A stretch of DNA of 61,995 nucleotides, the filler included, from Nemertoderma westbladi (lineage: Eukaryota > Animalia > Xenacoelomorpha), in the NCBI GenBank assembly GCA_032718475.1. It is 3 parts of 3 records of this genome, joined end to end, with 100 filler letters (N's around TTAATTAATTAA, not from the genome) between each part and the next. Parts side by side here need not be neighbours in the genome. Positions count along the whole stretch, not along the records: positions 1 to 25,886 come from JAUCBJ010000189.1; 2 more parts are not named here. The stretch is one strand, 5' to 3'. The position numbers and the translations under genes are program-made. A model generated the notes under the pieces. The model was not told the DNA's origin. It saw nothing but the letters and a program-made list of their open reading frames with translations, and did no database searches. Below are positions 698-23,535 of the stretch, piece after piece (the stretch's first letter is position 1; each line of letters begins with the position of its first letter).

Positions 698-1781
698 TTT
701 ATGCTGTAAGTGACAACATAGGGCCTATTGCTGTACAACTGAAATACAGAATTGACTCAGAACTGATCAGTTTCACCACTCAGCATTACGCGAGGATAAA
801 CCCCACTAGGCCTACCTCCTTTACGACTAGCTCCTTAAAGAGGATTGTTTCTCGACGGACTTCTGGACAGCTTCAGAGTGAGGAAATAACTTTTGACAGG
901 GCCACCTTCCGTGTGACCACAGAAGAAGTTTTGGCGTGGCACGATCTCGTTATCCTCGATAACCGATCGCTAAGAAGCCTATCGATCGTGAGGAGACTGG
1001 TTGCCTAACAACCACAGAAATAAACCAACAGCTAGAACGTAAAGTAGAAGAGGATTACCAAGGTTGCTGCCATATATAGTGAGACACTGTACTCATCTGC
1101 TGGACTGCGAAAGGTAAGAATATCGAACCAACCACCATTGACTGCTCATCATCCGATTGAAGTTTGTTATGTTATCCACCTTTGAATTCATAATCATCTT
1201 CGTAATTATTTTCTATACCAATCAAATCATTATCATATTACTATCGCATAATTTGTAGTCTGTGCTGTGATTGTCCCTAGGCCCAACTGTTTCTCATTTA
1301 ATGTTTAATACTACCTGAATGTCTGTTCTGTTTTCTGTTTACCACACTATTTCATATGACATACATTTGGCCATAATTTCACCATTATCTTCCTAAAAAG
1401 CTTGTGAAAATCACATACTCTATCTCGAATCTATTGATTATACGATACATTTTGCTTTTATTTTTCTGCTGACCTATTGGTAAATATCATATCTCTTCTA
1501 TATATTGTAATTGATGTGTATAGCAAAACCCCTGTGTGTAACTCGATCACGGAATTTTAATTTTGTCATTGTTTTAAAATTTTCAGTTGGCCTACATACC
1601 AGAAGGGCTACACTGGTAAATTGCGGGTATAAATTCTGGTTCTTTGTTTTTGTTTTTGCATTCACAAACGTTTTTAAGTTTCCCTTTTGGTCTGAAGTCA
1701 CGTTAGCTCCCACCACTAAAAATACTTTTGATCTTCATTTTTCTCATCAACACACTGTTTTCTTTGCCACCAATTATCCAC

Positions 1782-4700
1782 ATGGCTCCAATATTGGAGA
1801 AGACCCCAGACATTAGGAAAATGAGCACTGCTCGACTTAAGTCATTCCTTTCCAGTCGGAACCTTTCACCCTCTGGAACACGGGCAGCTTTACTGCTTAG
1901 AGCCGAGAGGTCTATAAAGATAAATACAACTAACAACATAAACAATCCAGCATTGGATTTGGCTGAAAACTTTAATTTGGATCCAGATCAATCAGTATAC
2001 CTTACTGTTACTCCAGAGTCTGTGACAAGATCTGCTGTGAACCCTATGGTAGACCAAACATATATGTCTAATAAAATTCCCCTAACTGAAGACAGCTCTG
2101 CTGGTAAATACAATAGAGCTTCTGCTTTGAGTATGGATAATACTAATATAACAGTCAATGGTGCACCAGTAAATGAGCAATCTGTAATCGTCCTTGAATC
2201 TACTATAGATTGCTCCAATAGTCAAATTGATACACCACCAGACGCTACATCTCAACCAACACCAACCTGCAAACCTCCAATCCCCTGTCAAGCAATACAC
2301 TATTCTCAAATAACACCTTCATCTCAACCAAAACCATTTTCTCCAATAAATGTCCTTTCTCAACCCACACTCACTTCTCAAACAACACCCCCACTATTAA
2401 CACCTCATCTCCAACCTTCACTGTCTCAACCAACACCCCCCTCTCAATTAACTATCCCCTCTCAACCAACACACACTTCCGAACTAACACCCCGATTACA
2501 AACAACTCAATCCCAGCCAACACCTCCGCATCAAACAACACCCCCTCCTCAAACAGCACTGGGCCACCCTAAACCAACACTCTCCTCTCAAATAACACCC
2601 CCCTTACAAATACCTATTTTCCAACAAACACCCCCTTCGCAAAAATCAACCCCCTCACAACATATCCCTACTTCACAACCAATGCCACCATCTCAAACAA
2701 GATTATCTTTACAACCAATAACATCACCACAACAAACACCCCCTCTTCAACCAACACTCCATCCTCAGCCAACACCAACTTCTCAACCTACACCACTGGC
2801 ACAACCAAAGCCCCCTTCTCATCCTGCACCTCAGTCTCTTCCAGCATGTCCAGGCAGCAAAATAACAGATTTCTTCCATAAACTACCCAACTTAACAACC
2901 CCAACCACTGGCTGCTCTGAAATCACTTCCTATATGGTTCAAGATCATACAGCAACTGTAGATGCTGAAGTCTATGAGTGTTACCCAAATAACACCCAAC
3001 CCATCCCGGCAAAAAATCTTAATACACCCATTATGGAACACTTGAGTAAACTGACCACTATTCCACCAGGCATTGTCATTCCGCTTCCAAGTGATCTAAA
3101 AACACTAAGACCGAAATCTTGGCTGAGTGATACTGTAGTTTCGGGTTTCCTGTCATTATTGGAGCGGTCACTTCCACATACTGCTGCCATAAGTATTGAC
3201 CTCAGCACAAAGCTTCTCACTCCGCACTGTGATGAACTTAGCGCCATTAAATACTTATCACAGAGATACATAGGGCGATATCAAAATACCCCACCTCAAC
3301 TTTTATTCATCCCACAATGCCTTCAAGGACATTTTGTACTCCACATCGCAAATTGCATCAATAAAACCATCCACACACTGGACTCTCTAAAGCCATCCAT
3401 GCCAACCAAGACAACTTTTGCTCTAGTAGATTTACTGAACAAAATAGACCAATGCAACCCCTGGACCAATTCAAATGGAGTCAATGCTAGTACCATGCAC
3501 CCTATAGATATTATAAATGAGTCATGGACAGCTTCGGTCAATAACTCCCATTTCCCAAAACAAACAAACAGCTACGACTGTGGAGTATATGTTTGCCTAT
3601 ATGCGCTTGCTACAGCCAAAGACACAAAATCCATATCTCCAATCATTCACAATAGTGACACTGCTCGCCAGTGGATAAGTGACTGCCTCAACAATATGAA
3701 GTTGGTAGAGCATGCCGACATCAAACTAGACGAGAATGACAACCGTATACAACCTGAAAATACATCACCATACCCGAAATCATTAAAACATATAAATGAG
3801 GAAACCAAAGAATCTTTGAAGGGTTCAGTTCCAAGTAAAATTGACATGCTCAAGCAAATTCTTAGAAATTCTCGAAAAGTAGCTCTGAAAATCCTGTCTG
3901 ATAAAAACCTTGACGAACTGTTGGAACTAAGAAGTGTACTATTTGAACAAGTGAAGCCACTTATGACACCTTCACAGAATGTATCACTGAAATTAAAGCA
4001 GCATGCATCTCGGCCTGATACATCTGGAGACATACTAGAGCTGTACAAATGCATTAATGAATCTAAATTCCTGGAGTCATGCAGAAAGCGACTATATAAG
4101 ACAAAAGAAAATAATAACTTAGACACAATTGACTGTCTAAGGGCAGACCTACTGCATTCGGTTTCCACACTTCAATCACGCATCTGTATTATGGAGAAAG
4201 ATATATCAGCATTAAGAGAGAAGAATCAATCAATAACAGAAGAACTCCAACATGAGAGACACCAGCGCATGCTATTAGAAGCTAGAATAGGAGATCAAAA
4301 ACACAGAGATCAAGTCAACAATCAACATAAATCCATTTACAATGCTGACCCAGACAGGATATCTAATGACACTCTAAACAGAGCTGACAAGATCATGTCA
4401 TCACCATCATCACCAGCATATGTGAGTGTTTTATCTAAAAGGAAACAACTCACAGCTAGCCATATACTCAAACAACCAGTACAGGAACCAGATTCCATAT
4501 TATGTTCGAACAGATATATTGTCTTGGATGAAATAATTGATGATGACACTTCATCAGGTGAGAATGTACCAAGTGAATCACAACTTAATCAACAGGGTGA
4601 AACACTCACATCCAAAGGAATAAGGGGCAAGAATAACAATAACATTTTAGGGGCCAAAAAGCAAGTCTCAATGTCCTTCTCACATGTGAAAAGTAACCCA

Positions 4701-5276
4701 GAAAGCAAAATGAAACCAATCTGTCCTGGAAATCAAGAAGGCAAAAGTGAAATAAAACCTTATGATAGCTCCTCAAGAAAAAAAGTCAAACCATTCAATC
4801 ATTATGATGGGAATTCATCTCAATACAATGACTCATACAAAGGGGACTTGAAACCACTCACAAGAGACCGGGACCTATACTTCCCACCAGCTCATTCTCA
4901 AGGACAATTTTACTCTGACAAAAAGTTTCCAGGCAGTAAAACAAATACAAACAATAGGAATACTCTACAACATGCTGAATCACAAAAATTTGAAACAATT
5001 TTCGTAAATGGCATACACCGTGAAAATGAGGAGGAGGATATTCTAGACTACCTAAGCATCAAAGGGATTCGAGCAGGCAGAGTTACAACTAGGATTCATG
5101 GCAACTTCAAGAATATGAAAATTATGATACAACAGAACTGCTTGTGCTATGTGCTGTCGGATAACTTCTGGCCTTTTGGAATCATATGTACTGAATGGAA
5201 AAACCGCAGATCTGCATTCACGAATCAAGAACATAGCACTAAGTTTCCTTCGTACCCATTGAGGCAGCGTCTTTAA
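1782..5276 (+). CDS. LINE ORF1: SAP domain, Q/P/T-rich linker, Ulp1/SENP-like C48 protease, coiled coil, C-terminal RRM-like domain
   Basis: ATG 1782 (MAPILEK) aligns with the start of the homologous ORF at 16936. SAP-like MSTARLKSFLSSRNLSPSGTRAALLLR. C48 motifs: SWLSDTVV, FIP..GHF (His 3330), LDSL (Asp 3381), QTNSYDCGVY (Cys 3579). Heptads in LQSRICIMEKDISALREKNQSITEEL. ORF1-type ending IFVNGI...FWPFGIICTEW. Confidence 0.9.
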   Translation: MAPILEKTPDIRKMSTARLKSFLSSRNLSPSGTRAALLLRAERSIKINTTNNINNPALDLAENFNLDPDQSVYLTVTPESVTRSAVNPMVDQTYMSNKIPLTEDSSAGKYNRASALSMDNTNITVNGAPVNEQSVIVLESTIDCSNSQIDTPPDATSQPTPTCKPPIPCQAIHYSQITPSSQPKPFSPINVLSQPTLTSQTTPPLLTPHLQPSLSQPTPPSQLTIPSQPTHTSELTPRLQTTQSQPTPPHQTTPPPQTALGHPKPTLSSQITPPLQIPIFQQTPPSQKSTPSQHIPTSQPMPPSQTRLSLQPITSPQQTPPLQPTLHPQPTPTSQPTPLAQPKPPSHPAPQSLPACPGSKITDFFHKLPNLTTPTTGCSEITSYMVQDHTATVDAEVYECYPNNTQPIPAKNLNTPIMEHLSKLTTIPPGIVIPLPSDLKTLRPKSWLSDTVVSGFLSLLERSLPHTAAISIDLSTKLLTPHCDELSAIKYLSQRYIGRYQNTPPQLLFIPQCLQGHFVLHIANCINKTIHTLDSLKPSMPTKTTFALVDLLNKIDQCNPWTNSNGVNASTMHPIDIINESWTASVNNSHFPKQTNSYDCGVYVCLYALATAKDTKSISPIIHNSDTARQWISDCLNNMKLVEHADIKLDENDNRIQPENTSPYPKSLKHINEETKESLKGSVPSKIDMLKQILRNSRKVALKILSDKNLDELLELRSVLFEQVKPLMTPSQNVSLKLKQHASRPDTSGDILELYKCINESKFLESCRKRLYKTKENNNLDTIDCLRADLLHSVSTLQSRICIMEKDISALREKNQSITEELQHERHQRMLLEARIGDQKHRDQVNNQHKSIYNADPDRISNDTLNRADKIMSSPSSPAYVSVLSKRKQLTASHILKQPVQEPDSILCSNRYIVLDEIIDDDTSSGENVPSESQLNQQGETLTSKGIRGKNNNNILGAKKQVSMSFSHVKSNPESKMKPICPGNQEGKSEIKPYDSSSRKKVKPFNHYDGNSSQYNDSYKGDLKPLTRDRDLYFPPAHSQGQFYSDKKFPGSKTNTNNRNTLQHAESQKFETIFVNGIHRENEEEDILDYLSIKGIRAGRVTTRIHGNFKNMKIMIQQNCLCYVLSDNFWPFGIICTEWKNRRSAFTNQEHSTKFPSYPLRQRL

Positions 5277-5313
5277 CAAAAAATCATGGAAAAAGCAATC
5301 CAGGTTATGCCAA

Positions 5314-8300
5314 ATGGGAGGACTTCATCATCTACAGGCAGATACAACGGCAGGTCTAATATCACCAGAATCTAGCTCAACTGACATGCACTGTAAAACT
5401 GAGCGATTAGATATGTCAACAAATGATGTTATCTATAGGAAAGAATATCTTGCAACAAAGGATGCATTGCCATTAACTCAACTTAGAATATCCACATATA
5501 ACTGCCGCGGGTTCAACGGAAATGCTCCATACATAACTGATCTACTGGAAGATTGTGATGTTTTAGGAATTCAAGAACACTGGTTAGATGCACAGGAATG
5601 TGAACTTTTTCTCAGAAATCTGCACATCGAGTTTGAAGTTGAGTTTACAGTCAGCAAACAAATGTCAAATCCACTCAGAAAAAGAGGAGTTGGTGGAACA
5701 GCACTTTTCTACCGCAAAAACATTTTCAATGTCATAAATAAGTTTGAATCTGGTGGTGATATAACTGGTATTGTGACGAATGTCAAATCTCTCAATGTCA
5801 ATCCCATTGCCCTAATTGCAGGATATGCTCCAGACAGTGGTAAGGATGACCAAACATTTAGCTCTTTCCTGGGGAGATTGGAGGCAACTTTGACGCATTT
5901 CAGTCATGCAACACCATTCATCATGATTGATGCTAATGCCGATATTGGCTCCAGTCAAGGACCACGGTGTAACCAACAACAACCAACAAAGCGTGGTAAA
6001 ATGCTATTAAATTTTCTCACTGATAACAAACTTACAGCTGTTGATACCCTAGAATTATGCAATGGCCCGTGTCATACATTCCAGGGCCATGGAAATTCTT
6101 ATATTGACCATGTACTCACAAACCTCAATGGACTTCGACTCTGCACAGAAGGTCAGGTGTATGACCATGACGAACTCAGGAATGGATCAGACCACAGCCC
6201 AGTATCAATTAAACTATATCCTATTTTAGCTCCAGCAACCGAACCTAAAGAGGAAGCCATAAGCAACACCACAGTGAGAATGAAATGCACCAAGAAACAA
6301 CTGTTACTTAATTGGAACAAAACATCGGCTGAAAATATATCCAAATATAAAATAGAGGTGAACACCAATCTCAAAGCACTCCAGGAAGAGTATGGCAATA
6401 ACCCTATTACCTGGACAGAAAAAATAATGAATGTGTATCTAGAGAAAGTGACACACACCATTCAGCAAGCAGCTTCAAAGTTTATCATGAAAATCACAAT
6501 CAGAAAGAAAACCAAAAACCTTAGAATAATAAACAAGAAGCTCAACTCTCGGAGCAAAACAACAAAAGGTTTATATAAACAATGGTGCAGTAATGGAAAG
6601 TCACCTTATGACCCACTTGGGGAGGCCTTTAAAGAGTCCAAAAAGAATAGCCGTAGACTCAGAAACTGGTTGGCAAACAAGCTGACAGCGGATCAGGTAT
6701 TGAGGGCAACAAGCAACAAGAACACATCACCAAAAGACTATTGGAAATTCTTCAGCACTAAAAAGAATAGTCCGAAAGCAGCAGATCCAACAACTGAGGA
6801 AAGGATAAAATCATATTTCTCAAAAAAATTTCGATGTGAAAATGATAACACAAATACTCAAGACCTTCTCACTCTCAACAAAGACCTAGATGATGAATGT
6901 GATGGCTCTTGTACCCCGGTGATCTCAGAATTGTGGGTAAAATGCGCGATCTTTTCTCTGAATCGAGGGAAGGCACCAGATTTTGACACATTGACTGTCG
7001 AACACCTTTTAAATCTTGATCCAATAGTAATTTCGGTATGCTTAAGGAATGTTATTCAAGCTGCCCTCCTGCTAGGAAAAGTTCCCACCTCTTTTGGTAG
7101 AACATTATTAAACACCATACACAAAGGCTCAAGAAAGGATCCTTACTGCCCAAAATCATTCAGGCCTGTGTCAACAATTAGTATCTTTGCCAAAATTATG
7201 GAAGCGATAATCTTGAAACACTACCTAACCAACATTGCTCCAGCTGAACTCCAAACAGCTTACCGTAAGGGCTTGGGAACAGATATTGTGGTAGCAGCAT
7301 TGCTTGAGTTAATCCACAACAATGAAAAGCAAAACCAAGGAACATATGTGTGTCAGATGGACATACAGAGTGCCTTCGATGAGGTGAATCATTGCAAACT
7401 TTTCAACAAACTGAGACATAAAATCAACCCATATGTTTGTAGAATGTTGGTGCATTACTACTCAAATAGCTATATGTTCATCAAGTTTGGTCAATGTATT
7501 GACACTGATGGGTTCAAGGTAACAATTGGAATACTTCAAGGTTCAATCCTCTCACCACACCTCTTCAACTTCTTCCTAAGAGAAGTCTTCACAGACATGG
7601 AGAATATCAAACTTGGGTGCTTCATCAATAATCAATGGCTTGGCTGCCTTTCGTATGCAGATGACATACTCCTAATATCTACATTATCCAGTGAAATTGA
7701 AATGATGAGTGCACGCCTAAATGAGTCACTCAGAAAAATTGGACTTGGCATAGCCACTGATAAAACAAAATGGACGTACTGCAAGCCCCCTAGAAGTAAC
7801 AAGTATATACCATGCTTCCTTAACCTGATGGGTGATCTTGTTCCCTTTAGTAGGAGCATAACATTTCTCGGCTATAAGGTATTTCATGAGCCCATTACAG
7901 CTTACCATGATGTTATCTGCAAAATCACGTTGCTATCGGAGATTTTCCACAGAAATGGTTGGACATCGCGTAAGCATGAGGTAAAGGACGTTAGAAAAAT
8001 TTGGAACTCATGCGCATTACCTTCTCTACTCTATAATCTTACCTTCCAAATTGGCACACTTACTGATACTCAAGTGAAATCACTCGATGCTTACTACCGA
8101 AAACATCTGAGGGGACTACTATGCGTCGGCAACTACTTGAGTAACAGCACTGTAATAGGGCTCTTTAACACAGGAAATCTGTCAAACGAAGCTTTCAAGA
8201 GTATGCTCAGACTTATCCAGCGAGTGAAGTACTGCCCTAGCCTCACCCTCCAATACTGCCTCCGTATTAACCTTGATAAATCTTGTAATACTTCTAAAGA

Positions 8301-8538
8301 CAATTACCTAGGACTAGGTGGAACTTATAACAGAGCAAATCAGGAGTACGCAATTCCATCTACCAACTCACTTTTAAATTCAGTGTACAACAAGAAGTCT
8401 CTAATGAAATACGTCTGTGAAGGCACAACAAGTTACATTGAAGATCGACATATTGATTTCATCACATCTGTATTTACCCTCAGAAGAGAACATTTCTCCA
8501 TTAAAAATCAACGAATCAGGGAATACTTTAATGTATAA
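5314..8538 (+). CDS. LINE ORF2: apurinic-like endonuclease plus reverse transcriptase
   Basis: APE motifs TYNCRG, IQEHW, IDANA, YIDH, SDHSP. RT motifs FRPVS, MDIQSAFD, QGSILSP, YADD, FLG. Uninterrupted 1074 aa; exact start codon uncertain. Confidence 0.96.
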   Translation: MGGLHHLQADTTAGLISPESSSTDMHCKTERLDMSTNDVIYRKEYLATKDALPLTQLRISTYNCRGFNGNAPYITDLLEDCDVLGIQEHWLDAQECELFLRNLHIEFEVEFTVSKQMSNPLRKRGVGGTALFYRKNIFNVINKFESGGDITGIVTNVKSLNVNPIALIAGYAPDSGKDDQTFSSFLGRLEATLTHFSHATPFIMIDANADIGSSQGPRCNQQQPTKRGKMLLNFLTDNKLTAVDTLELCNGPCHTFQGHGNSYIDHVLTNLNGLRLCTEGQVYDHDELRNGSDHSPVSIKLYPILAPATEPKEEAISNTTVRMKCTKKQLLLNWNKTSAENISKYKIEVNTNLKALQEEYGNNPITWTEKIMNVYLEKVTHTIQQAASKFIMKITIRKKTKNLRIINKKLNSRSKTTKGLYKQWCSNGKSPYDPLGEAFKESKKNSRRLRNWLANKLTADQVLRATSNKNTSPKDYWKFFSTKKNSPKAADPTTEERIKSYFSKKFRCENDNTNTQDLLTLNKDLDDECDGSCTPVISELWVKCAIFSLNRGKAPDFDTLTVEHLLNLDPIVISVCLRNVIQAALLLGKVPTSFGRTLLNTIHKGSRKDPYCPKSFRPVSTISIFAKIMEAIILKHYLTNIAPAELQTAYRKGLGTDIVVAALLELIHNNEKQNQGTYVCQMDIQSAFDEVNHCKLFNKLRHKINPYVCRMLVHYYSNSYMFIKFGQCIDTDGFKVTIGILQGSILSPHLFNFFLREVFTDMENIKLGCFINNQWLGCLSYADDILLISTLSSEIEMMSARLNESLRKIGLGIATDKTKWTYCKPPRSNKYIPCFLNLMGDLVPFSRSITFLGYKVFHEPITAYHDVICKITLLSEIFHRNGWTSRKHEVKDVRKIWNSCALPSLLYNLTFQIGTLTDTQVKSLDAYYRKHLRGLLCVGNYLSNSTVIGLFNTGNLSNEAFKSMLRLIQRVKYCPSLTLQYCLRINLDKSCNTSKDNYLGLGGTYNRANQEYAIPSTNSLLNSVYNKKSLMKYVCEGTTSYIEDRHIDFITSVFTLRREHFSIKNQRIREYFNV

Positions 8539-9278
8539 TACCACACCACACACACAGATCATTGGTACTAACACTCGTTATTTTACCTTAATGCTGGATT
8601 AGTGACTTCCAAAATTAAAGTTATAAAAATTGTATTGTGTATATTGAGATGAACCACTTACATCAACCAACATAACGGTTTAGCTGTGCTCTCGTGACTG
8701 GGTGACTTAGTCACCAATTTTATATGTGCAGCTATTAAATACTACCACTATGCTATCAAACCAACTACCGTCGACTGGCTGTCATGCTATTAGTCTTGTT
8801 ATTAACCATCCAAATCGTAATCCTGCTTGTTTCCACCCTACCGGTAATTAATTTCCGTATCAATCAAATCATTATTACATTACTATCGCTTCATTTGATG
8901 TCTGTGAACCTAACTAATGAACTGCATAATGTATAAATATTGTCTCCTTTTGCTTCATAATCAATGTCAATCATAATGTTATTTCAACTATTGTTTCTTA
9001 TTTAACTTTGCCCAAATCTCATACCAAACCAATAATAAACACAATCTACTGATTATGTTATACTTATGCACACTTATTGCACACTTACTATATATATACA
9101 TATGCCTATGACATCTTATTGTAAATTTTAATCTGTGCTGTGTAATTTTTAAATTTTAATTTGTATCTCTGAATGTCTTATACCGATTTTAATGTGTCAA
9201 TCTTGTGCACTTTTATTATATGTTCTTGTGCAATTTTATGTCAATTTTATTTGATTAAAACAATGAAATGAAATGAAA

Positions 9279-9804
9279 TGTACTATAAAATCGCGCTTCC
9301 CACTTAACCTATTGTACTATAAAATCGCGCTTCCCACTTAACCTATTGTACTATAAAATCGCGCTTCCCACTTAACCTACTGTACTATAAAATCGCGCTT
9401 CCCACTTAACCTACTGTACTATAAAATCGCGCTTCCCACTTAACCTATTGTACTATAAAATCGCGCTTCCCACTTAACCTACTGTATTATAAAATCGCGC
9501 TTCCCACTTAACCTATTGTACTATAAAATCGCGCTTCCCACTTAACCTATTGTACTATAAAATCGCGCTTCCCACTTAACCTATTGTACTATAAAATCGC
9601 GCTTCCCACTTAACCTACTGTACTATAAAATCGCGCTTCCCACTTAACCTATTGTACTATAAAATCGCGCTTCCCACTTAACCTATTGTACTATAAAATC
9701 GCGCTTCCCACTTAACCTATTGTACTATAAAATCGCGCTTCCCACTTAACCTACTGTACTATAAAATCGCGCTTCCCACTTAACCTATTGTACTATAAAA
9801 TCGC
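9279..9804. repeat. 34-bp satellite, block 1 (~15 units), unit TACTATAAAATCGCGCTTCCCACTTAACCTA(T/C)TG
   Basis: Exact 34-bp period (unit starts at 9281, 9315, ...). Confidence 0.98.
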
Positions 9805-11464
9805 TATTATACCCGACTAAGTGCTGCCTCACCGTCAAGCCGGAGAAGTTGGAGGAGGCAAAGGAGATTTTCGCGGACACCGGCGTTGCCATCGACACGG
9901 TGGGGAACAAACTCCTCGGCGGAGTAATCGGGACCGAGGAGTTCCAGCGCGAGTACACCGAGCGGAAGGTGGAGGAGTTCGCCGCCGACGTGGATCGCCT
10001 CGCCACCATCGCCGCAGTCGACCCGCACTGCGCGTACGCCGGCCTCGCCTTCGGTCTCTCCTGCCGGTGGCGGTTCTTGGCGCGCGTCGTCCCAGGGGCC
10101 ACGGATTCTTTTGGGAAGTTGGAGGAGGCCGTGGAACAGTGCCTCTGCCGGATCATTGACCGGCCGGCGGTATCGGCGACGGAACGCGAGTTGCTGTCGC
10201 TACCGGTTCGGGATGGGGGGCTGGGGATCCCGGTTCCCGAGGATCTACGACCCCAATACGAGAACTCCCGGAGGATCTGCGACCCGTTCATCTCCATGGA
10301 GGGTGAGTCAATGGTGACGATTAGGGAAGAGCAGACGCACGTAGAGAAGTTAGTTGCAGCCTCCTCCTCTGTTGTAGCGAAAGCTAAAAAGGAGGAGGTT
10401 TATGACAAATTAAGTAGTGAAATGCACAATTTGTGCGGACTAACTACTGAGAAAGGTGCGTCTGCCTGGCTAAATACCAAACCCTTAACGTTGCACGACA
10501 CTCACCTGTCCAAGGAAGAGTTCCGTGACGCAGTTTGTCTCCGGTACGGTTGGTCGCCAAGAAATCTTCCCTCTCGTTGTGTCTGTGGGTCGCGATTTTC
10601 TCCTTCCCACGTTCTGTCGTGTCCCACTGGGGGGTTCCCCTCAATCAGACACAACGAGATCCGCGATTTCGTCGCCGACTCCCTGACTGAGGTGGCCCAC
10701 AACGTGGCTGTCGAGCCGATGCTCCAGCCGCTGACGGGGGAGTCCTTCACTCTCCGGTCCACCTCGACGGACCAGCAGGCGAGACTCGACGTGTCGGTAA
10801 GCGGATTCTGGGGCAACCGCTTCCAGAAGATGTTTATCGACGTGTCGGTGTTCAACCCGCTGGCGGACACCAACGCAGCGATGTCGCTGGACGCCGCCCA
10901 CCTCCATCACGAGGCGAGGAAGATCCGGAGATACGAGGAGCGGATCCGTGAGGCTGAGCACTCAACCTTCACCCCCCTCATATTTTCCGCTTTCGGGGGC
11001 ATGGCGCCGGCTGCGAAGCAGTTTGTCAAGCGGCTGGCATTGAGGCTGTCGGAGAAACGACGGGTTCCCTACCCGGAGTCGGTAGCGTGGGTGCGGCGAC
11101 GCATCAACTTCGCCTTACTCCGGTCGTCCCTGATGTGCCTCCGTGGGTTTCGGTCGGCCGCTAGAAGACCGGTGCGGGCAGCGGTGGCGGACGCGTCCAT
11201 TGTGTGGGCGAACGCGGACTCGGACCCCGGGACGGCTTAGAAGTTAGAGGTCTGGCAGGTTTGTTGGGTACTGGCAGTGGCAGAGTGGCAGACTGGTGAT
11301 GGGTACTGAACCAATTTGTATTGTTTGTATTGTTGCTAGGTAACAGTTTGAATCAGCTGGTGGTGGGTTATATTTGTACTTGTTTTGGTGCGTTTTTATA
11401 TTCGAATTATTGTTTGTTAATATTATAATATATGGAGGCTTTTGAGTAAAAAAAAAAAAAAAAA
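9805..11464 (+). mobile_element. 5'-truncated CRE-type non-LTR retrotransposon with restriction-like endonuclease, poly(A) tail and TSD
   Basis: A17 tail at 11448-11464. TSD TAAAATCGC at 9796-9804 and 11465-11473. GC-rich body contrasts with the flanks. Confidence 0.92.
9849..11240 (+). CDS. C-terminal part of CRE-type polyprotein (RT end, zinc knuckle, RLE nuclease); truncated, no true start
   Basis: The frame stays open upstream (YPTKCCLTVKPEK). LPVRDGGLG; CVCG..HVLSC..RHN zinc motif; RLD..IDV..HEARKIRRY PD-(D/E)xK-like nuclease. Confidence 0.88.
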   Translation: MEEAKEIFADTGVAIDTVGNKLLGGVIGTEEFQREYTERKVEEFAADVDRLATIAAVDPHCAYAGLAFGLSCRWRFLARVVPGATDSFGKLEEAVEQCLCRIIDRPAVSATERELLSLPVRDGGLGIPVPEDLRPQYENSRRICDPFISMEGESMVTIREEQTHVEKLVAASSSVVAKAKKEEVYDKLSSEMHNLCGLTTEKGASAWLNTKPLTLHDTHLSKEEFRDAVCLRYGWSPRNLPSRCVCGSRFSPSHVLSCPTGGFPSIRHNEIRDFVADSLTEVAHNVAVEPMLQPLTGESFTLRSTSTDQQARLDVSVSGFWGNRFQKMFIDVSVFNPLADTNAAMSLDAAHLHHEARKIRRYEERIREAEHSTFTPLIFSAFGGMAPAAKQFVKRLALRLSEKRRVPYPESVAWVRRRINFALLRSSLMCLRGFRSAARRPVRAAVADASIVWANADSDPGTA

Positions 11465-14012
11465 TAAAATCGCGCTTCCCACTTAACCTATTGTACTATA
11501 AAATCGCGCTTCCCACTTAACCTATTGTACTATAAAATCGCGCTTCCCACTTAACCTATTGTACTATAAAATCGCGCTTCCCACTTAACCTATTGTACTA
11601 TAAAATCGCGCTTCCCACTTAACCTATTGTACTATAAAATCGCGCTTCCCACTTAACCTACTGTACTATAAAATCGCGCTTCCCACTTAACCTACTGTAC
11701 TATAAAATCGCGCTTCCCACTTAACCTACTGTACTATAAAATCGCGCTTCCCACTTAACCTACTGTACTATAAAATCGCGCTTCCCACTTAACCTATTGT
11801 ACTATAAAATCGCGCTTCCCACTTAACCTACTGTACTATAAAATCGCGCTTCCCACTTAACCTATTGTACTACTAAATCGCGCTTCCCACTTAACCTATT
11901 GTACTATAAAATCGCGCTTCCCACTTAACCTACTGTACTACTAAATCGCGCTTCCCACTTAACCTATTGTACTATAAAATCGCGCTTCCCACTTAACCTA
12001 TTGTACTATAAAATCGCGCTTCCCACTTAACCTATTGTACTATAAAATCGCGCTTCCCACTTAACCTATTGTACTATAAAATCGCGCTTCCCACTTAACC
12101 TATTGTACTATAAAATCGCGCTTCCCACTTAACCTATTGTACTATAAAATCGCGCTTCCCACTTAACCTACTGTACTATAAAATCGCGCTTCCCACTTAA
12201 CCTACTGTACTACTAAATCGCGCTTCCCACTTAACCTACTGTACTATAAAATCGCACTTCCCACTTCACCTATTGTACTATAAAATCGCGCTTCCCACTT
12301 AACCTATTGTGCTATAAAATCGCGCTACCCACTTAACCTACTGTACTATAAAATCGCGCTTCCCACTTAACCTACTGTACTATAAAATCGCGCTTCCCAC
12401 TTAACCTACTGTACTATAAAATCGCGCTTCCCACTTAACCTACTGTACTATAAAATCGCGCTTCCCACTTAACCTACTGTACTATAAAATCGCGCTTCCC
12501 ACTTAACCTACTGTACTATAAAATCGCGCTTCCCACTTAACCTACTGTACTATAAAATCGCGCTTCCCACTTAACCTACTGTACTATAAAATCGCGCTTC
12601 CCACTTAACCTACTGTACTATAAAATCGCGCTTCCCACTTAACCTACTGTACTATAAAATCGCGCTTCCCACTTAACCTACTGTACTATAAAATCGCGCT
12701 TCCCACTTAACCTATTGTACTATAAAATCGCGCTACCCACTTAACCTACTGTACTATAAAATCGCGCTTCCCACTTAACCTACTGTACTATAAAATCGCG
12801 CTTCCCACTTAACCTATTGTACTATAAAATCGCGCTTCCCACTTAACCTATTGTACTATAAAATCGCGCTTCCCACTTAACCGATTGTACTATAAAATCG
12901 CGCTTCCCACTTAACCTATTGTACTATAAAATCGCGCTTCCCACTTAACCTATTGTACTATAAAATCGCGCTTCCCACTTAACCTATTGTACTATAAAAT
13001 CGCGCTTCCCACTTAACCTATTGTACTATAAAATCGCGCTTCCCACTTAACCTATTGTACTATAAAATCGCGCTTCCCACTTAACCTATTGTACTATAAA
13101 ATCGCGCTTCCCACTTAACCTATTGTACTATAAAATCGCGCTTCCCACTTAACCTATTGTACTATAAAATCGCGCTTCCCACTTAACCTATTGTACTATA
13201 AAATCGCGCTTCCCACTTAACCGATTGTACTATAAAATCGCGCTTCCCACTTAACCTATTGTACTATAAAATCGCGCTTCCCACTTAACCTACTGTACTA
13301 TAAAATCGCGCTTCCCACTTAACCTATTGTACTATAAAATCGCGCTTCCCACTTAACCTATTGTACTATAAAATCGCGCTTCCCACTTAACCGATTGTAC
13401 TATAAAATCGCGCTACCCACTTAACCTATTGTACTATAAAATCGCGCTTCCCACTTAACCTATTGTACTATAAAATCGCGCTTCCCACTTAACCTATTGT
13501 ACTATAAAATCGCGCTTCCCACTTAACCTATTGTACTATAAAATCGCGCTTCCCACTTAACCTATTGTACTATAAAATCGCGCTTCCCACTTAACCTATT
13601 GTACTATAAAATCGCGCTTCCCACTTAACCTATTGTACTATAAAATCGCGCTTCCCACTTAACCTATTGTACTATAAAATCGCGCTTCCCACTTAACCTA
13701 TTGTACTATAAAATCGCGCTTCCCACTTAACCTATTGTACTATAAAATCGCGCTTCCCACTTAACCGATTGTACTATAAAATCGCGCTTCCCACTTAACC
13801 TATTGTACTATAAAATCGCGCTTCCCACTTAACCTATTGTACTATAAAATCGCGCTTCCCACTTAACCTATTGTACTATAAAATCGCGCTTCCCACTTAA
13901 CCTATTGTACTATAAAATCGCGCTTCCCACTTAACCTATTGTACTATAAAATCCGCTTCCCACTTAACCTACTGTACTATAAAATCGCGCTTCCCACTTA
14001 ACCTATTGTACT
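11465..14012. repeat. 34-bp satellite, block 2 (~75 units)
   Basis: Same unit as block 1. Confidence 0.98.
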
Positions 14013-14396
14013 TCGAGTTTATTGCCAAAGAGAACGAGCATTAAAGCAGACACAGTACACAGTTTATAATACAATATAGAGCGCATGCAGGCGCATCATC
14101 CGGACAAGCCGGCATTTATTTGTGTTAATTTAAAAGGGAAGTACAAAATAAAATCAAATAGCAGAAGTATATAAAATAGCACTGTTAGTAAAATAATTGA
14201 TATGACATTTGAGAATAATTAAAACAGACTGCTACTACTAAGCCATTCATAATAAAAGAATAAAATCCGGATCATCTAAAAGAGCTATGCTCATAAGTTC
14301 AGGTAAAATTACTGATTGTATTCGGTTCATTAAAGACTCAATAATTACGAGTTATAGTTCGTACACGATAAATCAAAATAGGATACGATCCAGCAA

Positions 14397-15584
14397 TCAC
14401 GTCACCCTAACTTTATTTATCCAGTTAAAATATTGTTCTATCCTATGATGACGCATTTTGAAAGGCAACGACTGCGAATAGCACTGCAAAATAAAATCGC
14501 GGTCGGATTCCTCCGCCATTGTGAGTGCTGCAGGTTCTAAAAGCTTATATAGTGAGCATTTACTATATTTATAGCACAAAATTGAGCTCAAACTGGGGAT
14601 CGCATACTTTTGAGAACATTTTTCAAAAACTGAGCCCAGTCCTACATAAAGGTTATTTGTTGTCCCAGACAGGTTAGCCTGTAATGCGATACGCAGGATG
14701 GACTGTAATAAAACATTTGGGCACTTATTTACTCTGGTTAATGTTCCGACGCAAAGTTTATACATTTCCACACTAAAATCGTTGCATCCGAGTAATGCAA
14801 GGGTTACGTTGTTGCTTGAATAAGGACCCACGAAAAGTAAACCTCGCAGAGTCTTCCGGTAATAAGAGTCAAGTTCAGCGATTTCTTTTGAACATAGCGA
14901 ACCAATAAGATACCGCGATGAGTAGGATATGGTTGGTACAGCTATGGACCGCCACAGGTATCCCAGTGTGCTGCAATCGAGCCAGCGCGCATTCCACCCA
15001 TTTCGATGAAATAAATCCGACATTATGGCTATCGAGCGGATGCAATCCTGGAGGCTGTTGCGACGTGGATGTACAATGGGGAAGCCCAAAAAGGTCATGT
15101 CATCTGATCGTGGAACTAATGTTCCATTGATGCACATAAATGTAGGGACATTCTCACAAGAATAATCATTACCATAGCAGGACCACTTTGTTTTGCTCAT
15201 CTCAATCTCCAGTTTCACTTTATTCATTTCAATGCTGAAAATATCAGCGGCCAATGTCAGTTCGGTGACAGATGTTGCAGTGAGCAGTATATCATCAGCA
15301 TAAGCTATGATGCCCAGCCAAATGAGCCCAACGATGGACCCAAATCCGTTTAAGCTTAGAATATCCAGAACATCCTTCATATAAAGAAGAAACAGTAAAG
15401 GTGACAACAGTGACCCCTGCTTGACTCCACGTACCAGGTTGATCCCACAAACATCTATCTCGTCGGCAACCTTGAGAAAGGCACAAGTAGATTCATAATA
15501 CGCTAGTAGAACTAGGCAGATGTAAGGGTTTATTATCTCCTTTAGTTTACTGAACAGTAGAACAAAGTCGAGGCTACCAAATGC
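14397..15584 (-). pseudogene. C-terminal half of RT ORF2 of element B
   Basis: AF(G)SLD, GVKQGSLLSP, YADD, FLG. The C-terminal region aligns with A (FHRNGW, YYRKxLRGLL). Confidence 0.88.
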
Positions 15585-16936
15585 ACCACAGAATGTTGCT
15601 TTAGATCTGCAATGTGTAGAACAAAGTGATCTTTGTGACAATCAGGGAAGAATATAAGTGATGTGGTGCCAATGTTGCAAGAGGAGGCAATATACTTAAT
15701 GGCACTGGCAGTATCAAAGTTGTTCTGATGCAATTTACTGCACAAAGCGGTGTCAATACAGCCAATTCTGTTTCCACCTTGAACACCCAGTAATGAGAGG
15801 AAGGAGTCCACTACCGTTGTTGTTAATTTCTGACCAGGTTGGAAGTACCTCCAGTCAGGGTCACTTGGCTTTAAAAGCACCAGTCCTTTGCGAATGTTTG
15901 TATTAAAAATTGCGTCTTTCACACGTTCTTCGTCATAAGATAGTTCTAGATCAGGGTAGAATTTGTTATGTTCACCAGTAGTACCAGTACTGGGATTGTG
16001 ATGGTAACATCCAACATACTGAACATCATCAGAGTCTCCTTGCTTGGACTGGAGTACAGGTATTGGATTCATAGGATTGAATAATTTGGCACCAGGATCC
16101 AGCAAAGATTCCATGGGATCAGAGACTATCGCAGTGGTTTTTCTGAAGAAATCAGTGATCTTCCTGCTAGACTTACGGGGTTTCCAAGAGCCATCATCTT
16201 GTAAGTCCTCTATTAGAACCGAATTACAAGTAACTGAAGCAAATGGAGGGATTTGGGCGGGATCATTCGGGGAGTTTACCTCCGTCGCCTCAGGGATTAG
16301 AGTGGGATCCTCTGGGGAGCTTACCTCCGTCGCCACTGGGATTAGGGCGGGATACTCCGGGGAGATTACCTCTGTTGCCTCCGGGATTAGGGCGGGATTC
16401 TCCAGCGAGTTTAACTCCGTCACCTCCGGGATTAGTGTGGGATCCTCCGGGGAGTTTACCTCCATCACCTCCGGGATTAGGCCGTGATCTTCCAGGGAGT
16501 TAACCTCCGTCGCCTCCGGGATTAGGGCGGGATACTCCGGGGAGTTTACCTCTGTTGCCTGCGGGATTAGGGCGGGGTTCTCCAGCGAGTTTACCTCCGT
16601 CATCTCCGAGATTAGGGCGGGATCCTCCAGCGAGTTTACCTCCGTCGCCTCCGGGATTACGGCGGGATTCTCCGGCGAGTTTGCCTCCAGGATTAGGGTG
16701 GTATACTCTGGAGTGTTTACCTCCTTCGTCTCGGGAATGACAGCGGGGTCCACTAAGGAGTCGACCGGGACAACAGAATCCAGAGATACGACACCGTTAA
16801 TAATAAGCCGATCCGCACGGGTCAGTAGTTCAGCTCGGCGTCCAGTAGATGGTACTTCGTGTTTCGCTAAAAATGATTTAAGGCGTGCAGTGTTCATTTT
16901 CCGACACATCTCCATTGTTTCTTTGATTTCCGCCAT
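15570..16936 (-). pseudogene. N-terminal part of ORF1 of element B (SAP, 15-aa repeats, start of Ulp1-like domain)
   Basis: RKMNTARLKSFL..G.RA.LL.RA.R, KITDFF, VVDSFLSLL and HFVLHIA all match ORF1 of A. Ends at the deletion junction. Confidence 0.88.
16260..16760 (-). repeat. 45-bp coding tandem repeat (15 aa, EVNSPEDPALIPEAT-like, ~11 copies)
   Basis: Visible in DNA (gggagtttacctcc with 45-bp period) and in the translation. Confidence 0.9.
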
Positions 16937-17029
16937 CTTGAGCTTTCGCCTTTTTTTGTTAACAACTCAGTATAAATAAAATAAATCATTAAAAATAAAT
17001 TCATGCAGGTGTCTACTGCTGCAGTACCG

Positions 17030-18679
17030 GTACTATAAAATCGCGCTTCCCACTTAACCGATTGTACTATAAAATCGCGCTTCCCACTTAACCTATTGTA
17101 CTATAAAATCGCGCTTCCCACTTAACCTATTGTACTATAAAATCGCGCTTCCCACTTAACCTATTGTACTATAAAATCGCGCTTCCCACTTAACCGATTG
17201 TACTATAAAATCGCGCTTCCCACTTAACCTATTGTACTATAAAATCGCGCTTCACACTTAACCTATTGTACTATAAAATCGCGCTTCCCACTTAACCTAT
17301 TGTACTATAAAATCGCGCTTCCCACTTAACCTATTGTACTATAAAATCGCGCTTCCCACTTAACCTATTGTACTATAAAATCGCGCTTCCCACTTAACCA
17401 TTGTACTATAAAATCGCGCTTCCCACTTAACCTATTGTACTATAAAATCGCGCTTCCCACTTAACCTACTGTACTATAAAATCGCGCTTCCCACTTAACC
17501 TACTGTACTATAAAATCGCGCTTCCCACTTAACCATTGTACTATAAAATCGCGCTTCCCACTTAACCTATTGTACTATAAAATCGCGCTTCCCACTTAAC
17601 CTATTGTACTATAAAATCGCGCTTCCCACTTAACCTATTGTACTATAAAATCGCGCTTCCCACATAACCTATTGTACTATAAAATCGCGCTTCCCACTTA
17701 ACCTATTGTACTATAAAATCGCGCTTCCCACTTAACCTATTGTACTATAAAATCGCGCTTCCCACTTAACCTACTGTACTACTAAATCGCGCTTCCCACT
17801 TAACCTACTGTACTATAAAATCGCGCTTCCCACTTAACCGATTGTACTATAAAATCGCGCTTCCCACTTAACCTACTGTACTATAAAATCGCGCTTCCCA
17901 CTTAACCTATTGTACTATAAAATCGCGCTTCCCACTTAACCTACTGTACTATAAAATCGCGCTTCCCACTTAACCTATTGTACTATAAAATCGCGCTTCC
18001 CACTTAACCTATTGTACTATAAAATCGCGCTTCCCACTTAACCTATTGTACTATAAAATCGCGCTTCCCACTTAACCGATTGTACTATAAAATCGCGCTT
18101 CCCACTTAACCTACTGTACTACTAAATCGCGCTTCCCACTTCACCTATTGTACTATAAAATCGCGCTTCCCACTTAACCGATTGTACTATAAAATCGCGC
18201 TTCCCACTTAACCTATTGTACTATAAAATCGCGCTTCCCACTTAACCTATTGTACTATAAAATCGCGCTTCCCACTTAACCTATTGTACTATAAAATCGC
18301 GCTTCCCACTTAACCTATTGTACTATAAAATCGCGCTTCCCACTTAACCTATTGTACTATAAAATCGCGCTTCCCACTTAACCTACTGTACTATAAAATC
18401 GCGCTTCCCACTTAACCTACTGTACTATAAAATCGCGCTTCCCACTTAACCTACTGTACTACTAAATCGCGCTTCCCACTTCACCTATTGTACTATAAAA
18501 TCGCGCTTACCACTTAACCTACTGTACTATAAAATCGCGCTTCCCACTTAACCTACTGTACTATAAAATCGCGCTTCCCACTTAACCTACTGTACTATAA
18601 AATCGCGCTTCCCACTTAACCTACTGTACTACTAAATCGCGCTTCCCACTTAACCTACTGTACTATAAAATCGCGCTTC
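17030..18679. repeat. 34-bp satellite, block 3 (~48 units)
   Basis: Same unit as block 1. Confidence 0.98.
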
Positions 18680-21535
18680 ATTTTTTCATTTCACAAGGTA
18701 CACCGGTCAAGCCGGTATTTATATTGAAGTAAAAAGTATATATTAATACTGAATAAAAACCGAACAAACTATACAAAATTAAAAATGTCATAAGGTTCAT
18801 AGGTTAATTATTGTAAATGGAGGAAAAATCTGTGCAAAAGATAATTATTTTAAGAAATACTGCAGTATGCGGTTATGTTTTGCCGCAAATCCGCATTGGC
18901 CAGAGTTATAACAGTTATATATAAAGTCCGCATTGACAATATCTTTTCCTGTTGGATGTCCGTGGTTTATGTGAGATTTCAGTGTCCGTTTATGGTACCG
19001 GTTTACACACATTGAAAATAGTGAGGGTATCGGGAATTCTCGAGTCGCTCGCATATATGTATTTCCCAGTCCAGGATAGCGCCGCTTTGACTGATAGTTC
19101 CAGATAAGACCAAGTCGTAGCAGCAACTGAAGTTTGAGATGTGGACTAACTACCAAACGCAGCATGCAATTAGTCACGTCACGGTATACCTCAAGTGATA
19201 GATCTCTACATCCTGAGAGTTTCCTTAATGTAGCATTATTGACGTACGATCCAACATAAAGAAGTCCCCTGAGTATCTTTCTATAATATGCATTCATAGA
19301 TTCGATTTCATCTTGATTTAGATTCCCTATTATGAATTTTATTTTGTACAGAATTGCTGGTATGGCCATCGTGGACCAAAGATTGAACACTGTGTTTATG
19401 GTGTACCATCGAATGGTCCAGCCATTTTTGTGAAACGCATGTGACATAGACGCAAGAGTTTGAATTATGACTGAGTAATTAGTGTTACAGTTATTATTTC
19501 CATATAAGGTGTGGCCAAGGAATTTGATTGTTTGGGATTCAGGGAATAGGCAATTTGCTGAGTTGATGAATAGGGGTCGGTATGTGTTTTTGGGTATAAT
19601 GCTCATCCATTTTGATTTTGTGGGTTCCATATTTAGGTTCAATTTATCCATTTCATATGATAGTAATGCTAGCATACTAGTAATCTCCTCTTTATTATTG
19701 CACAATAAAACTATATCATCCGCATAGCAAACTAGACCTGACCAGATGTTGTGAAAAGATACTCCAAGGCCTGTTTTCTCAACTGAATCTAAGGCTCCCT
19801 TTAAATAGACATTAAATAGCGTTGGTGACAACAATGATCCTTGTTTTACACCTATCCTTGTTCGAATTCCATTGGTCAATATCATATCTCCGAACTTTAG
19901 AAACAGTAATCCAACTCTGTAATAATTAATTAGGGTCAAACAGATAAAAGGGCAAATATGCTCCGAGAGGGTTTTAAATAATACACTGTAAGAGACATGA
20001 TCGAATGCACCTGCTATGTCCAACTGAAATATGTAAAGGGACTGATTTCTCTGACGATGTGACTCAATAATTTCCTGTATCAACGCTACTACAAGATCTG
20101 ATCCAACTCCTTTTTTGTACCCATATTGGCATGAGTTTGTAGATATGTATGGAAGAATGAATTGTTTGAGGGTGATAGCTTCGAACAGTTTACCAAATAC
20201 AGATACAGTGGCAATTGGTCGATAGCTATTTGGTCGTGTAGTTCCACGGTTTCCACTTTTATATATGTATGTTATCAGTGTCCTTCCATAGACTTCAGGG
20301 ACTGTCTGCAATCGGATTGAGGCATTGAAGATGTTGCATAAGTGTACAGCAGCATAGTTTTCATCAAGATGAAGAATGTGCTCTGCTGAAAGATTAAAGA
20401 AATCTGGAGATTTGCCCCTAGCTAATGCTAGTATAGCATGTTTAACAGTATCCTCTGATATTGTTGGAGGACTTCTACCTTCTGATAGTAGTTTCAGTTC
20501 GATGACTACTTTGTCTAACTCACTTTCAGCATCAGTTTCAGCTGAGTTCATAACATGTATTAAATTATCTCTCAGTGATTTAGCCATGCTGATGGGAGCT
20601 GTTCCTTCTTTAGTTGAGAAGTGTTTCCAGAACTCATGAGGATTATTCCTGTTATGTACTATGCCGCCAGTTTTGGATCTTACTGATTGTTTCGCAAGCC
20701 AGTTTCTAAGGCGCCTTAGTGATTTCTTTGACTCTTTCAATGCTATGCTAAAAGAGTCCCTTTTAATTTTACCATTTTGCTTCCAAATTTTATACAGCTC
20801 CTTAGTAGTATTTGCATGACTAGATATTAATTTGTTCCTTATACGAATATTGGTCGTCTTTTTTCGAAATTTACTGACAGGTATAAAGAGATTGGCTCCC
20901 TCTGTAATAGCTCTCTGCATCTCCTCGGTGTATCTATTCAATTCCTCAGATGTCCAATCGAGAGAGTTCATGCTGCTTGAGTGGAGATTATCCAGCTTAT
21001 TCTCTACATACTCCTTATAACTGTTGAGTTGAGCTGTAGTCGCCTTACTCCAGGCTACTCGTGGTAATCTTTTGGTAAATTCCTGTGTATTCTCCTTGTT
21101 ATTTGTATTATGTTCATTTACAATTGCTATCTCAGCTACTACTGGACTGTGATCAGAGAGAGCATGGACATGTGGGTTTATTACCTCACCGCTCACTATT
21201 AGTTGGTCACCAGGGTTGGTTGTGAGTATATGGTCTATATATGAATCGCCCTGAGGCCCCCTGAAAGTAACAGATGGTCCTGAAAATTTACCATATGTAT
21301 CTACTGCCACTAAATTGTTCGCAGCCAAGAACTCCGATAGCAACCTGCCATTGCGATTCGGGAGTTTTTTTGTCCAACGTTGACCACATGTGTTCCCAAG
21401 GTCAGCATTTGCATCTAAGAGAATGTAAGGTATAGCTTGATTATTACATTCCAAAATTTGTTTGATTCTGCCAAGAAAGTCATCATACTGCTCCTTTGGC
21501 TTGGATGTATCTGGCGCATATCCAGATAAGAATAT
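18680..21535 (-). mobile_element. 5'-truncated LINE (element C), third family of the same lineage
   Basis: Tail GAAATGAAAAAATGAA on the minus strand. 11-bp TSD AATCGCGCTTC at 18669-18679 and 21536-21546. Confidence 0.92.
18845..21535 (-). CDS. ORF2 of element C (truncated APE plus full RT), frame intact
   Basis: GYAPD, LDANADLG, YIDH, SDHSP, LDIAGAFD, QGSLLSP, YADD. Shares lineage-specific motifs with A (KESKK..RRLRNWLA, GK.PDF..L..EH). The listed GTG start comes from the satellite. Confidence 0.9.
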   Translation of the reverse strand: MFLSGYAPDTSKPKEQYDDFLGRIKQILECNNQAIPYILLDANADLGNTCGQRWTKKLPNRNGRLLSEFLAANNLVAVDTYGKFSGPSVTFRGPQGDSYIDHILTTNPGDQLIVSGEVINPHVHALSDHSPVVAEIAIVNEHNTNNKENTQEFTKRLPRVAWSKATTAQLNSYKEYVENKLDNLHSSSMNSLDWTSEELNRYTEEMQRAITEGANLFIPVSKFRKKTTNIRIRNKLISSHANTTKELYKIWKQNGKIKRDSFSIALKESKKSLRRLRNWLAKQSVRSKTGGIVHNRNNPHEFWKHFSTKEGTAPISMAKSLRDNLIHVMNSAETDAESELDKVVIELKLLSEGRSPPTISEDTVKHAILALARGKSPDFFNLSAEHILHLDENYAAVHLCNIFNASIRLQTVPEVYGRTLITYIYKSGNRGTTRPNSYRPIATVSVFGKLFEAITLKQFILPYISTNSCQYGYKKGVGSDLVVALIQEIIESHRQRNQSLYIFQLDIAGAFDHVSYSVLFKTLSEHICPFICLTLINYYRVGLLFLKFGDMILTNGIRTRIGVKQGSLLSPTLFNVYLKGALDSVEKTGLGVSFHNIWSGLVCYADDIVLLCNNKEEITSMLALLSYEMDKLNLNMEPTKSKWMSIIPKNTYRPLFINSANCLFPESQTIKFLGHTLYGNNNCNTNYSVIIQTLASMSHAFHKNGWTIRWYTINTVFNLWSTMAIPAILYKIKFIIGNLNQDEIESMNAYYRKILRGLLYVGSYVNNATLRKLSGCRDLSLEVYRDVTNCMLRLVVSPHLKLQLLLRLGLIWNYQSKRRYPGLGNTYMRATREFPIPSLFSMCVNRYHKRTLKSHINHGHPTGKDIVNADFIYNCYNSGQCGFAAKHNRILQYFLK

Positions 21536-21592
21536 AATCGCGCTTCCCACTTAACCTACTGTACTATAAAATCGCGCTTCCCACTTAACCTA
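21536..21592. repeat. 34-bp satellite, terminal block (<2 units)
   Basis: Same unit; the array ends here. Confidence 0.9.
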
Positions 21593-22312: not shown

Positions 22313-22417
22313 GACCACGATTTCTTCCAACACCTCGAGATGCACATCCGATCGGAGCACCCACCTCTCTGTGGCCGGGATCATCTCGCCTTCCGTTCTT
22401 ACTATTTTCCGGTAAAG
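22313..22417 (+). CDS. SF3B3: Splicing factor 3B subunit 3, penultimate coding exon
   Basis: tttacag acceptor, gtaagt donor. Encodes [35 protein letters not shown]. Confidence 0.93.
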
Positions 22418-23394: not shown

Positions 23395-23535
23395 AATATT
23401 ATTGACGGTGATTTGTGCGAACAATTTAACTCGATAGAGCCGAGTAAACAGAAATCAATTGCAACCGAACTCGATAGAACTGCCTCCGAAGTTGCCAAGA
23501 AGTTGGAAGACATTAGGACACGTTTTGCCTTTTAG
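23395..23535 (+). CDS. SF3B3: Splicing factor 3B subunit 3, last coding exon
   Basis: tttcag acceptor. NIIDGDLCEQF...KKLEDIRTRFAF* is the SF3B3 C-terminus, in frame with the previous exon. Confidence 0.95.
   Translation, partial: NIIDGDLCEQFNSIEPSKQKSIATELDRTASEVAKKLEDIRTRFAF

Follow-up and report, generated by a model that had tools for sequence, protein, structure and literature searches.

Why does one small tandem array hold four retrotransposon insertions, three of them from a single lineage? This question is raised by a locus of the xenacoelomorph Nemertoderma westbladi (assembly GCA_032718475.1), lying in a window of 61,995 nucleotides, by which we mean the whole stretch of DNA analysed. 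The window is made up of three pieces, with N-spacers between them at 25887-25986 and 47071-47170, and its first piece, from JAUCBJ010000189.1, carries a 34-bp array interrupted by four elements without long terminal repeats: three related long interspersed nuclear elements (LINEs), here called A, B and C, and a fourth, unrelated one. A first-pass annotation of this DNA had proposed that the lineage of A, B and C prefers the array as a satellite target. Our analysis leads us to lean, with some reserve, towards another answer, namely that the array is a permissive or tolerated intronic hot spot for dispersed families and not a recognised target sequence.

Four insertions in one tandem array

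The locus is composed of the following features.

732..736, + strand: 5' copy of the 5-bp target-site duplication (TSD) of element A (TGTAC); second copy at 9279-9283
737..9278, + strand: element A, a full-length LINE of the apurinic endonuclease (APE) type with two open reading frames (ORFs) and a (TGAAA)n end
1782..5276, + strand: ORF1 of A, 1164 amino acids from the first Met, with SAP domain, Pro/Thr/Gln-rich linker and Ulp1-type C48 protease
5263..8538, + strand: ORF2 of A, 1091 amino acids from stop to stop, with apurinic-type endonuclease and reverse transcriptase (RT)
9279..9804, + strand: segment 1 of the 34-bp array, 15.5 units
9805..11463, + strand: fourth element, of the restriction-like endonuclease (RLE) type and CRE-like, 5'-truncated, with poly(A) tail, 9-10-bp TSD and 57% GC
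11464..14012, + strand: segment 2 of the array, 75 units
14013..17029, - strand: element B, internally deleted, with a SAP-bearing ORF1 that contains a 45-bp internal repeat, and a 5-bp TSD
17030..18679, + strand: segment 3 of the array, 48.6 units
18680..21535, - strand: element C, 5'-truncated within the endonuclease, with a 901-amino-acid open frame, a (TGAAA)n-type tail and an 11-bp TSD
~21536..21592, + strand: segment 4 of the array, 1.7 units, at its right edge

The array totals 4781 bp in its four segments (~141 units, 96-98% match), and the four insertions amount to about 16 kb. All four are bounded by exact TSDs, of 5 bp (A), 9-10 bp (fourth element), 5 bp (B) and 11 bp (C). When an element is removed together with one TSD copy, the register of the 34-bp unit is restored at 40 of 40 positions for the fourth element, 40 of 40 for B and 39 of 40 for C; with the TSD kept in the empty site, the agreement for these three is only 24-29 of 40. 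The register test is not applicable to A (26 of 40), because A lies at the left edge of the array. These results bear out the earlier claim of four independent insertions in or at the edge of one array and the three TSDs then named for the fourth element, B and C; A had been credited with none, its duplication having been overlooked. A 12-bp palindrome at 17025-17036 coincides with the 5' junction and TSD of B.

A is the sole whole copy among the four, since C and the fourth element are 5'-truncated and B has lost the stretch from inside the protease to the middle of the RT, which leaves it a protease without its end, no endonuclease and only the second half of the RT. The former statement that the reading frames are still open therefore holds for the remaining pieces, and for an entire element in A only.

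The 3' junctions fall at unit positions 1 (A, + strand), 7 (fourth element, +), 6 (B, -) and 21 (C, -), so A, B and C do not share the fixed site and orientation of R1 or Tx1. The first-pass annotation had drawn attention to TSDs lying within one part of the unit, which proves uninformative: a 21-position arc of the 34-position ring holds four random cuts with P = 0.90, and clustering of cut sites within the unit was rejected as chance on this basis. A stretch of 7 positions takes in three of the four with P = 0.33. By eye, the A- and C-type sites share an overlap of 2-4 nt with the (TGAAA)n tail.

A diverged lineage with a SAP-Ulp1 ORF1

In ORF2, A, B and C are 36-37% identical to one another, and among 179 proteins retrieved the highest values are 23-26% for A and C and 26-32% for the shorter piece of B. 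A FastTree phylogeny of 82 of 176 RT pieces (the elements of the window, P0001-P0031 where long enough and every third of the remainder) unites the three in one clade, which has a long stem and support 1.0, in agreement with the earlier view of them as one diverged lineage. This clade groups among database RTs that have no clade names, apart from the RTEs of the window and from nematode RTE-type proteins. By the motifs of the neighbouring RTs, A, B and C may be RTEX/Proto2-like; this clade name is unconfirmed, the RTs compared being without named references. By their TSDs, 3' tails and gradient of 5' truncation they are APE-type LINEs, B being without a repeat tail. Exo_endo_phos_2 and RVT_1 exceed the Pfam cut-off in A and C, and RVT_1 alone in the deleted B. 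Four public sequencing runs were used, three of which (X1-X3, from two studies) contain A, the fourth (X5) coming from a third study; the run search listed no RNA run containing A. In X1 the depth along A is about 33-40 near the 5' end and reaches 160-650 towards the 3' end, the pattern of a 5'-truncating family.

SAP and Peptidase_C48 both exceed their Pfam cut-offs in ORF1 of A, as the first-pass annotation had recognised, and B retains a weaker SAP match and the start of the protease. The protease of A matches yeast Ulp1 with an E-value of 7e-13, SENP1 with 1e-5 and the deneddylase SENP8 with 0.05, and its His, Asp, Gln and Cys align to the catalytic residues of yeast Ulp1 (Atlas features 0.95). 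ORF1 of A thus appears to carry an Ulp1/SENP-type C48 fold with a His-Asp-Cys triad and an oxyanion Gln, and its protease may be specific for SUMO. No homolog of the protease region was present among 1009 candidates, and an alignment of ORF2 gave 340 pattern matches in metagenomes, none of them confirmed. A single-sequence fold of the protease was unusable (predicted local distance difference test, pLDDT, 37).

A six-frame search of the window found no further member of the lineage, as had been stated for the "other 40 kb". That sequence comprises 5.0 kb on the same contig and 35.9 kb on two unlinked contigs, and the absence is weak evidence because even with 3000 copies a stretch of 40 kb would contain none in 55-89% of cases. 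Homologs of the fourth element number 178 (best 40-46%), many of them RT-bearing and two of them named from sponges; it has no Pfam match, and CRE is a tentative label for it.

Two side observations concern A itself. Part of its 5' untranslated region (UTR), at 1121-1264, is a degraded 72-84% copy of part of its own 3' UTR (8754-8906), which recalls non-terminal repeats. All four runs also contain an internally deleted relative of A with a different ORF1 end (5277-9011), possibly a non-autonomous family, whose joints (5303-6095, 6229-6354, 6575-9011) vary by run.

A minisatellite probably within an SF3B3 intron

The genic context of the array, which the first-pass annotation missed, is a new finding: shortly to its right come the two final coding exons of the splicing-factor gene SF3B3.

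702..1113, + strand: left flank and first 377 nt of A, likely a non-coding exon, joined to 22313 in X5; no ATG
22313..22417, + strand: SF3B3 coding exon, human residues 1137-1171, 32 of 35 identical, with AG and GT borders
23395..23535, + strand: last SF3B3 coding exon, human residues 1172-1217, stop codon included

Each exon matches SF3B3 with an E-value of about 1e-18, and the two are consecutive, with GT-AG borders. No earlier SF3B3 exon was found in the + frames of 21593-22312 nor at 391-1005; the preceding exon is therefore likely to be found beyond the left end of the window, and the array is likely to sit in an SF3B3 intron. One X5 contig covers 702-1114 and then 22314-22340 of the window, which gives a joint of 1113 to 22313 with GT at 1114-1115 and AG at 22311-22312. 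The last position of the contig, 22340, is the merge point predicted with another AG-ending exon at a word length of 31. We infer that X5 is RNA, and the 5' end of A likely supplies the splice donor for an ATG-less exon joined to SF3B3. Spliced or deleted, this joint links the outer flanks in their assembled order.

Several observations touch this context. Read in frame with the SF3B3 exon, 702-1113 would carry 4 stops. A further possible acceptor for the donor at 1114 is the pyrimidine-rich AG at 1585-1586; the two would bound a candidate intron in the 5' UTR of A (1114-1586), for which no junction was seen. Just right of the array, at 21690-21756, lies a short 3' end with a (TTA)n tail, presumably that of another LINE or of a short interspersed nuclear element (SINE), and the last SF3B3 intron holds an RTE fragment (22473-23155) whose 3' end recurs at 51620-51755 with 96% identity.

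In the assembled contigs the 34-mer forms one 64-bp ring, whose depth is 1737 in X1, 66 in X2 and 1184 in X3; X5 has none. Relative to single-copy contigs this corresponds to ~43-93 units in X1, 2 in X2 and 18-47 in X3, and the window alone holds 78 consensus-word copies of the 34-mer. It is important to note that depth is a rough measure and not a copy number; it suggests about one array, and no run indicates a genome-wide 34-mer satellite. The repeat is probably a single-locus intronic minisatellite, and not the satellite family that it had been taken for. The flank just left of A (before 732) is similar to the last part of the 34-bp unit, and the two main variants of the unit could be derived from this flank via a 3-nt loss, which fits a local birth of the array. 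A scan of metagenome contigs gave 0 matches to the 34-mer. DNA hairpins in three array units are unremarkable on both strands (z of 0.39 and -0.10), and a fold-back fragile site is unsupported by these values. Positions 6-12 of each unit read TATAAAA, so that a TATA-box-like motif occurs ~140 times and may be a tethering feature.

Other copies of A and C

The first-pass annotation had recommended that the flanks of other copies be collected. The 3' end of C occurs in 13 contigs from the four runs, 7 of them junction contigs; in six of these C is followed by non-satellite DNA, with three different flanks in all (the first present in X1, X2 and X3, the second in X1, the third in X2 and X5), and the seventh is depth-2 noise. 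Among the 24 listed of 85 loose-end rows, A-type 3' ends enter non-array DNA in 3 rows (4 contigs), with 2-4 distinct flanks, and at least one of these ends, whose match to A is limited to about 33 nt, may be a relative. The 34-mer flanks none of the 7 C junction contigs and none of the 4 A-type ends among those listed; contigs drop array junctions, so that repeat-flanked copies could be hidden. Neither the missing satellite-junction contigs nor the non-coverage of ORF1 and the array by X5 was taken as absence. Five tested flank starts fit the unit ring at 8-11 of 18-20 letters, and one C flank of ~370 bp and two A-type flanks of at least 255 bp extend without collapsing. Rough depth ratios give ~5-17 copies of C and ~4-16 of A, and contigs at 90-95% identity, together with loose ends, reveal several relatives of A. 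The proposal that the lineage prefers the array by sequence is at odds with these data: the sites and strands differ, and other copies have non-satellite flanks, three for C and at least two for the A type.

Comparison with known systems

RTEX/Proto2-like APE LINEs of the RTE group resemble A, B and C in having two ORFs, APE and RT domains, a short tandem 3' tail and short TSDs, but the present lineage stands apart by its own long branch (support 1.0), best matches of 23-26% for A and C, and an ORF1 with SAP and C48. It has been reported that some RTEX ORF1s carry an esterase (PMC3905857), and clade names and ORF1 classes, but no diagnostic test, were found in PMC5753468, PMC11203168 and PMC3905857. 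An Ulp1-like protease is described in the NeSL and Utopia-1_TSP non-LTR elements (PMC4640811), which are single-ORF RLE elements, unlike the two-ORF APE-type A, and SAP is described in the transposon Zisupton and one Chlamys element (PMC8557442). The combination of SAP and Ulp1 in the ORF1 of an APE LINE was not found in the literature searched, Repbase and most subscription papers being outside its scope.

Target-specific elements are described as mostly RLE-type, R1 or Tx1 (PMC4640811). R1 and Tx1 share with A, B and C an APE endonuclease and insertion into repeated sequence (PMC4640811), whereas the present elements have no fixed site or strand, their other copies are dispersed and their target is apparently low-copy. 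The L1-CS LINEs of Cuscuta recurrently interrupt the CUS-TR24 satellite, with TSDs, and so offer a likeness of one LINE lineage repeatedly entering a tandem array (PMC8091179); L1-CS is 91% array-associated, with two preferred motifs in a major heterochromatic satellite, in contrast to the varied sites in one small, likely intronic array found here. For Drosophila Jockey-3 (G2), a weak and apparently sequence-independent regional bias has been proposed to reflect chromatin (PMC11575011). That bias is centromeric and tied to CENP-A, whereas the present site is likely genic. Minisatellite intron hot spots as such were not found in the literature searched.

Hot spot, guidance or chance

A tolerated hot spot would have arisen, in our proposal, as a minisatellite born locally, as is likely, within the SF3B3 intron. 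Insertion would follow the usual course of target-primed reverse transcription, in which the tail matches the nicked DNA by 2-4 complementary nt and so primes synthesis. For a (TGAAA)n tail the unit has TG on one of its strands and GAA on the opposite one, and for a poly(A) tail it has a run of T. Constitutive transcription of the surrounding gene, a housekeeping gene with an accessible intron, would make insertion frequent, and the insertions would be kept because they are spliced out. Microhomology at the 3' end is usual for tailed LINEs, being found at about 80% of ZfL2-2 3' junctions (PMC2666801), and we count in favour of a hot spot the unrelated RLE element in the same array and the RTE fragment in the next intron. 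Several points weigh against it. A neutral site should have gathered the locally common RTEs, yet three of its four insertions belong to one rare lineage, and this is the main weakness of our preferred reading; that all three lineage members of the window lie in the array has P = 0.001 against the rest of the window, in a post hoc comparison. The ring depth differs 18-fold between X2 and X3, which come from the same sample; X5 is recorded as "DNA?", its RNA nature being our own deduction; the window's own C junction is absent from every run, contigs dropping array junctions; and the visible flanks explain only about 6-40% of the depth of C in X1-X3.

The excess of the lineage at this locus could be explained if its ORF1, with SAP and a SUMO protease, steered it to a chromatin feature of the array in a sequence-independent manner, by analogy with Jockey-3 and CENP-A; the candidate features are the chromatin of tandem repeats and, within a transcribed intron, a row of 140 TATAAAA boxes. 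Three families 36-37% alike within 4.8 kb, an ORF1 with SAP and an intact-looking protease and the precedents of PMC11575011 and PMC8091179 speak for such steering, as does the possibility that two of the three other C flanks, which lie on short contigs, are repeats. If insertion were uniform and the genome, as assumed here, 200-1000 Mb in size, 0.004-0.09 bins of this kind would be expected for 1000 copies of the lineage and 0.1-2.4 for 3000, so that at least ~3000 would be needed for one. On the other side stand the non-collapsing flanks of C and of the A type, and the window's other 5.5 kb of tandem arrays, which hold no member of the lineage (P = 0.10). We regard chromatin steering as unlikely, though worth keeping in view, and rather less credible still is its stronger form, that a host-restricted LINE homes on minisatellite chromatin in transcribed introns and locally de-SUMOylates it via its SAP-SUMO-protease ORF1. 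The same doubt attaches to homing as a case of chromatin-guided safe-harbour targeting outside centromeres, telomeres and ribosomal DNA (rDNA). The local excess is probably real, though not proven; present evidence gives no link between it and the SAP-Ulp1 ORF1. Pure chance, with many small lineage families surviving only in tolerant regions and one bin receiving three, we consider improbable. It draws on the several A relatives, on a locus chosen after the fact and on the 0.16-4.6 such bins expected if 750-1500 copies survive in 50-100 Mb; A and C nevertheless look low-copy, and fewer than 0.1 bins are expected for up to 1000 copies over at least 200 Mb.

Two further explanations seem to us very improbable. 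An endonuclease specific for the 34-mer, as in R1 or Tx1, would account for TSDs that all consist of array sequence and for three 3' junctions at unit positions 1-7, but the lineage used three different sites on both strands, the grouping of three of four junctions within 7 positions is unremarkable at P = 0.33, other copies lie in unrelated flanks, and a target that looks single-locus makes a poor refuge; such targeting is largely refuted. Equally hard to credit is a chimeric assembly of unlinked array-flanked pieces, which the first-pass annotation had raised as a danger to the finding. No contig or long read in the four public runs spans the arrays, which leaves room for it, but two kinds of evidence make it unlikely. 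Within the locus, the paired TSDs are in register and rare unit variants occur on both sides of B; in the runs, the junction of left flank and A is bridged in all four, X5 joins the outer flanks in the assembled order, and depth reveals no surplus array.

Other features of the window

1..697, no strand assigned: separate 26-bp tandem array, extending past the left end of the window
25887..25986, no strand assigned: N-spacer with a stop-codon linker, where the array-bearing contig ends

The 26-bp array (1-701) may be polymorphic: an X5 contig has other letters upstream of 702, and an X1 contig stops there. On the second contig lie a BEL/Pao peptidase A17 fragment (36441-37025) and a near-complete RTE element (38307-41415), and a single open frame at 52016-54037, on an unlinked contig, has all three RMI1 domains.

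Significance

These results describe a deeply diverged LINE lineage with a SAP-Ulp1 ORF1, undescribed in the literature searched. On the likelier reading, that of a tolerated hot spot, the locus would be a clean case of a small minisatellite in the intron of an essential gene gathering four insertions. If the lineage were instead chromatin-guided, it would represent a natural vector that seeks introns and a LINE that brings along an enzyme against silencing, and one could then test what part SUMO plays in the choice of LINE insertion sites.

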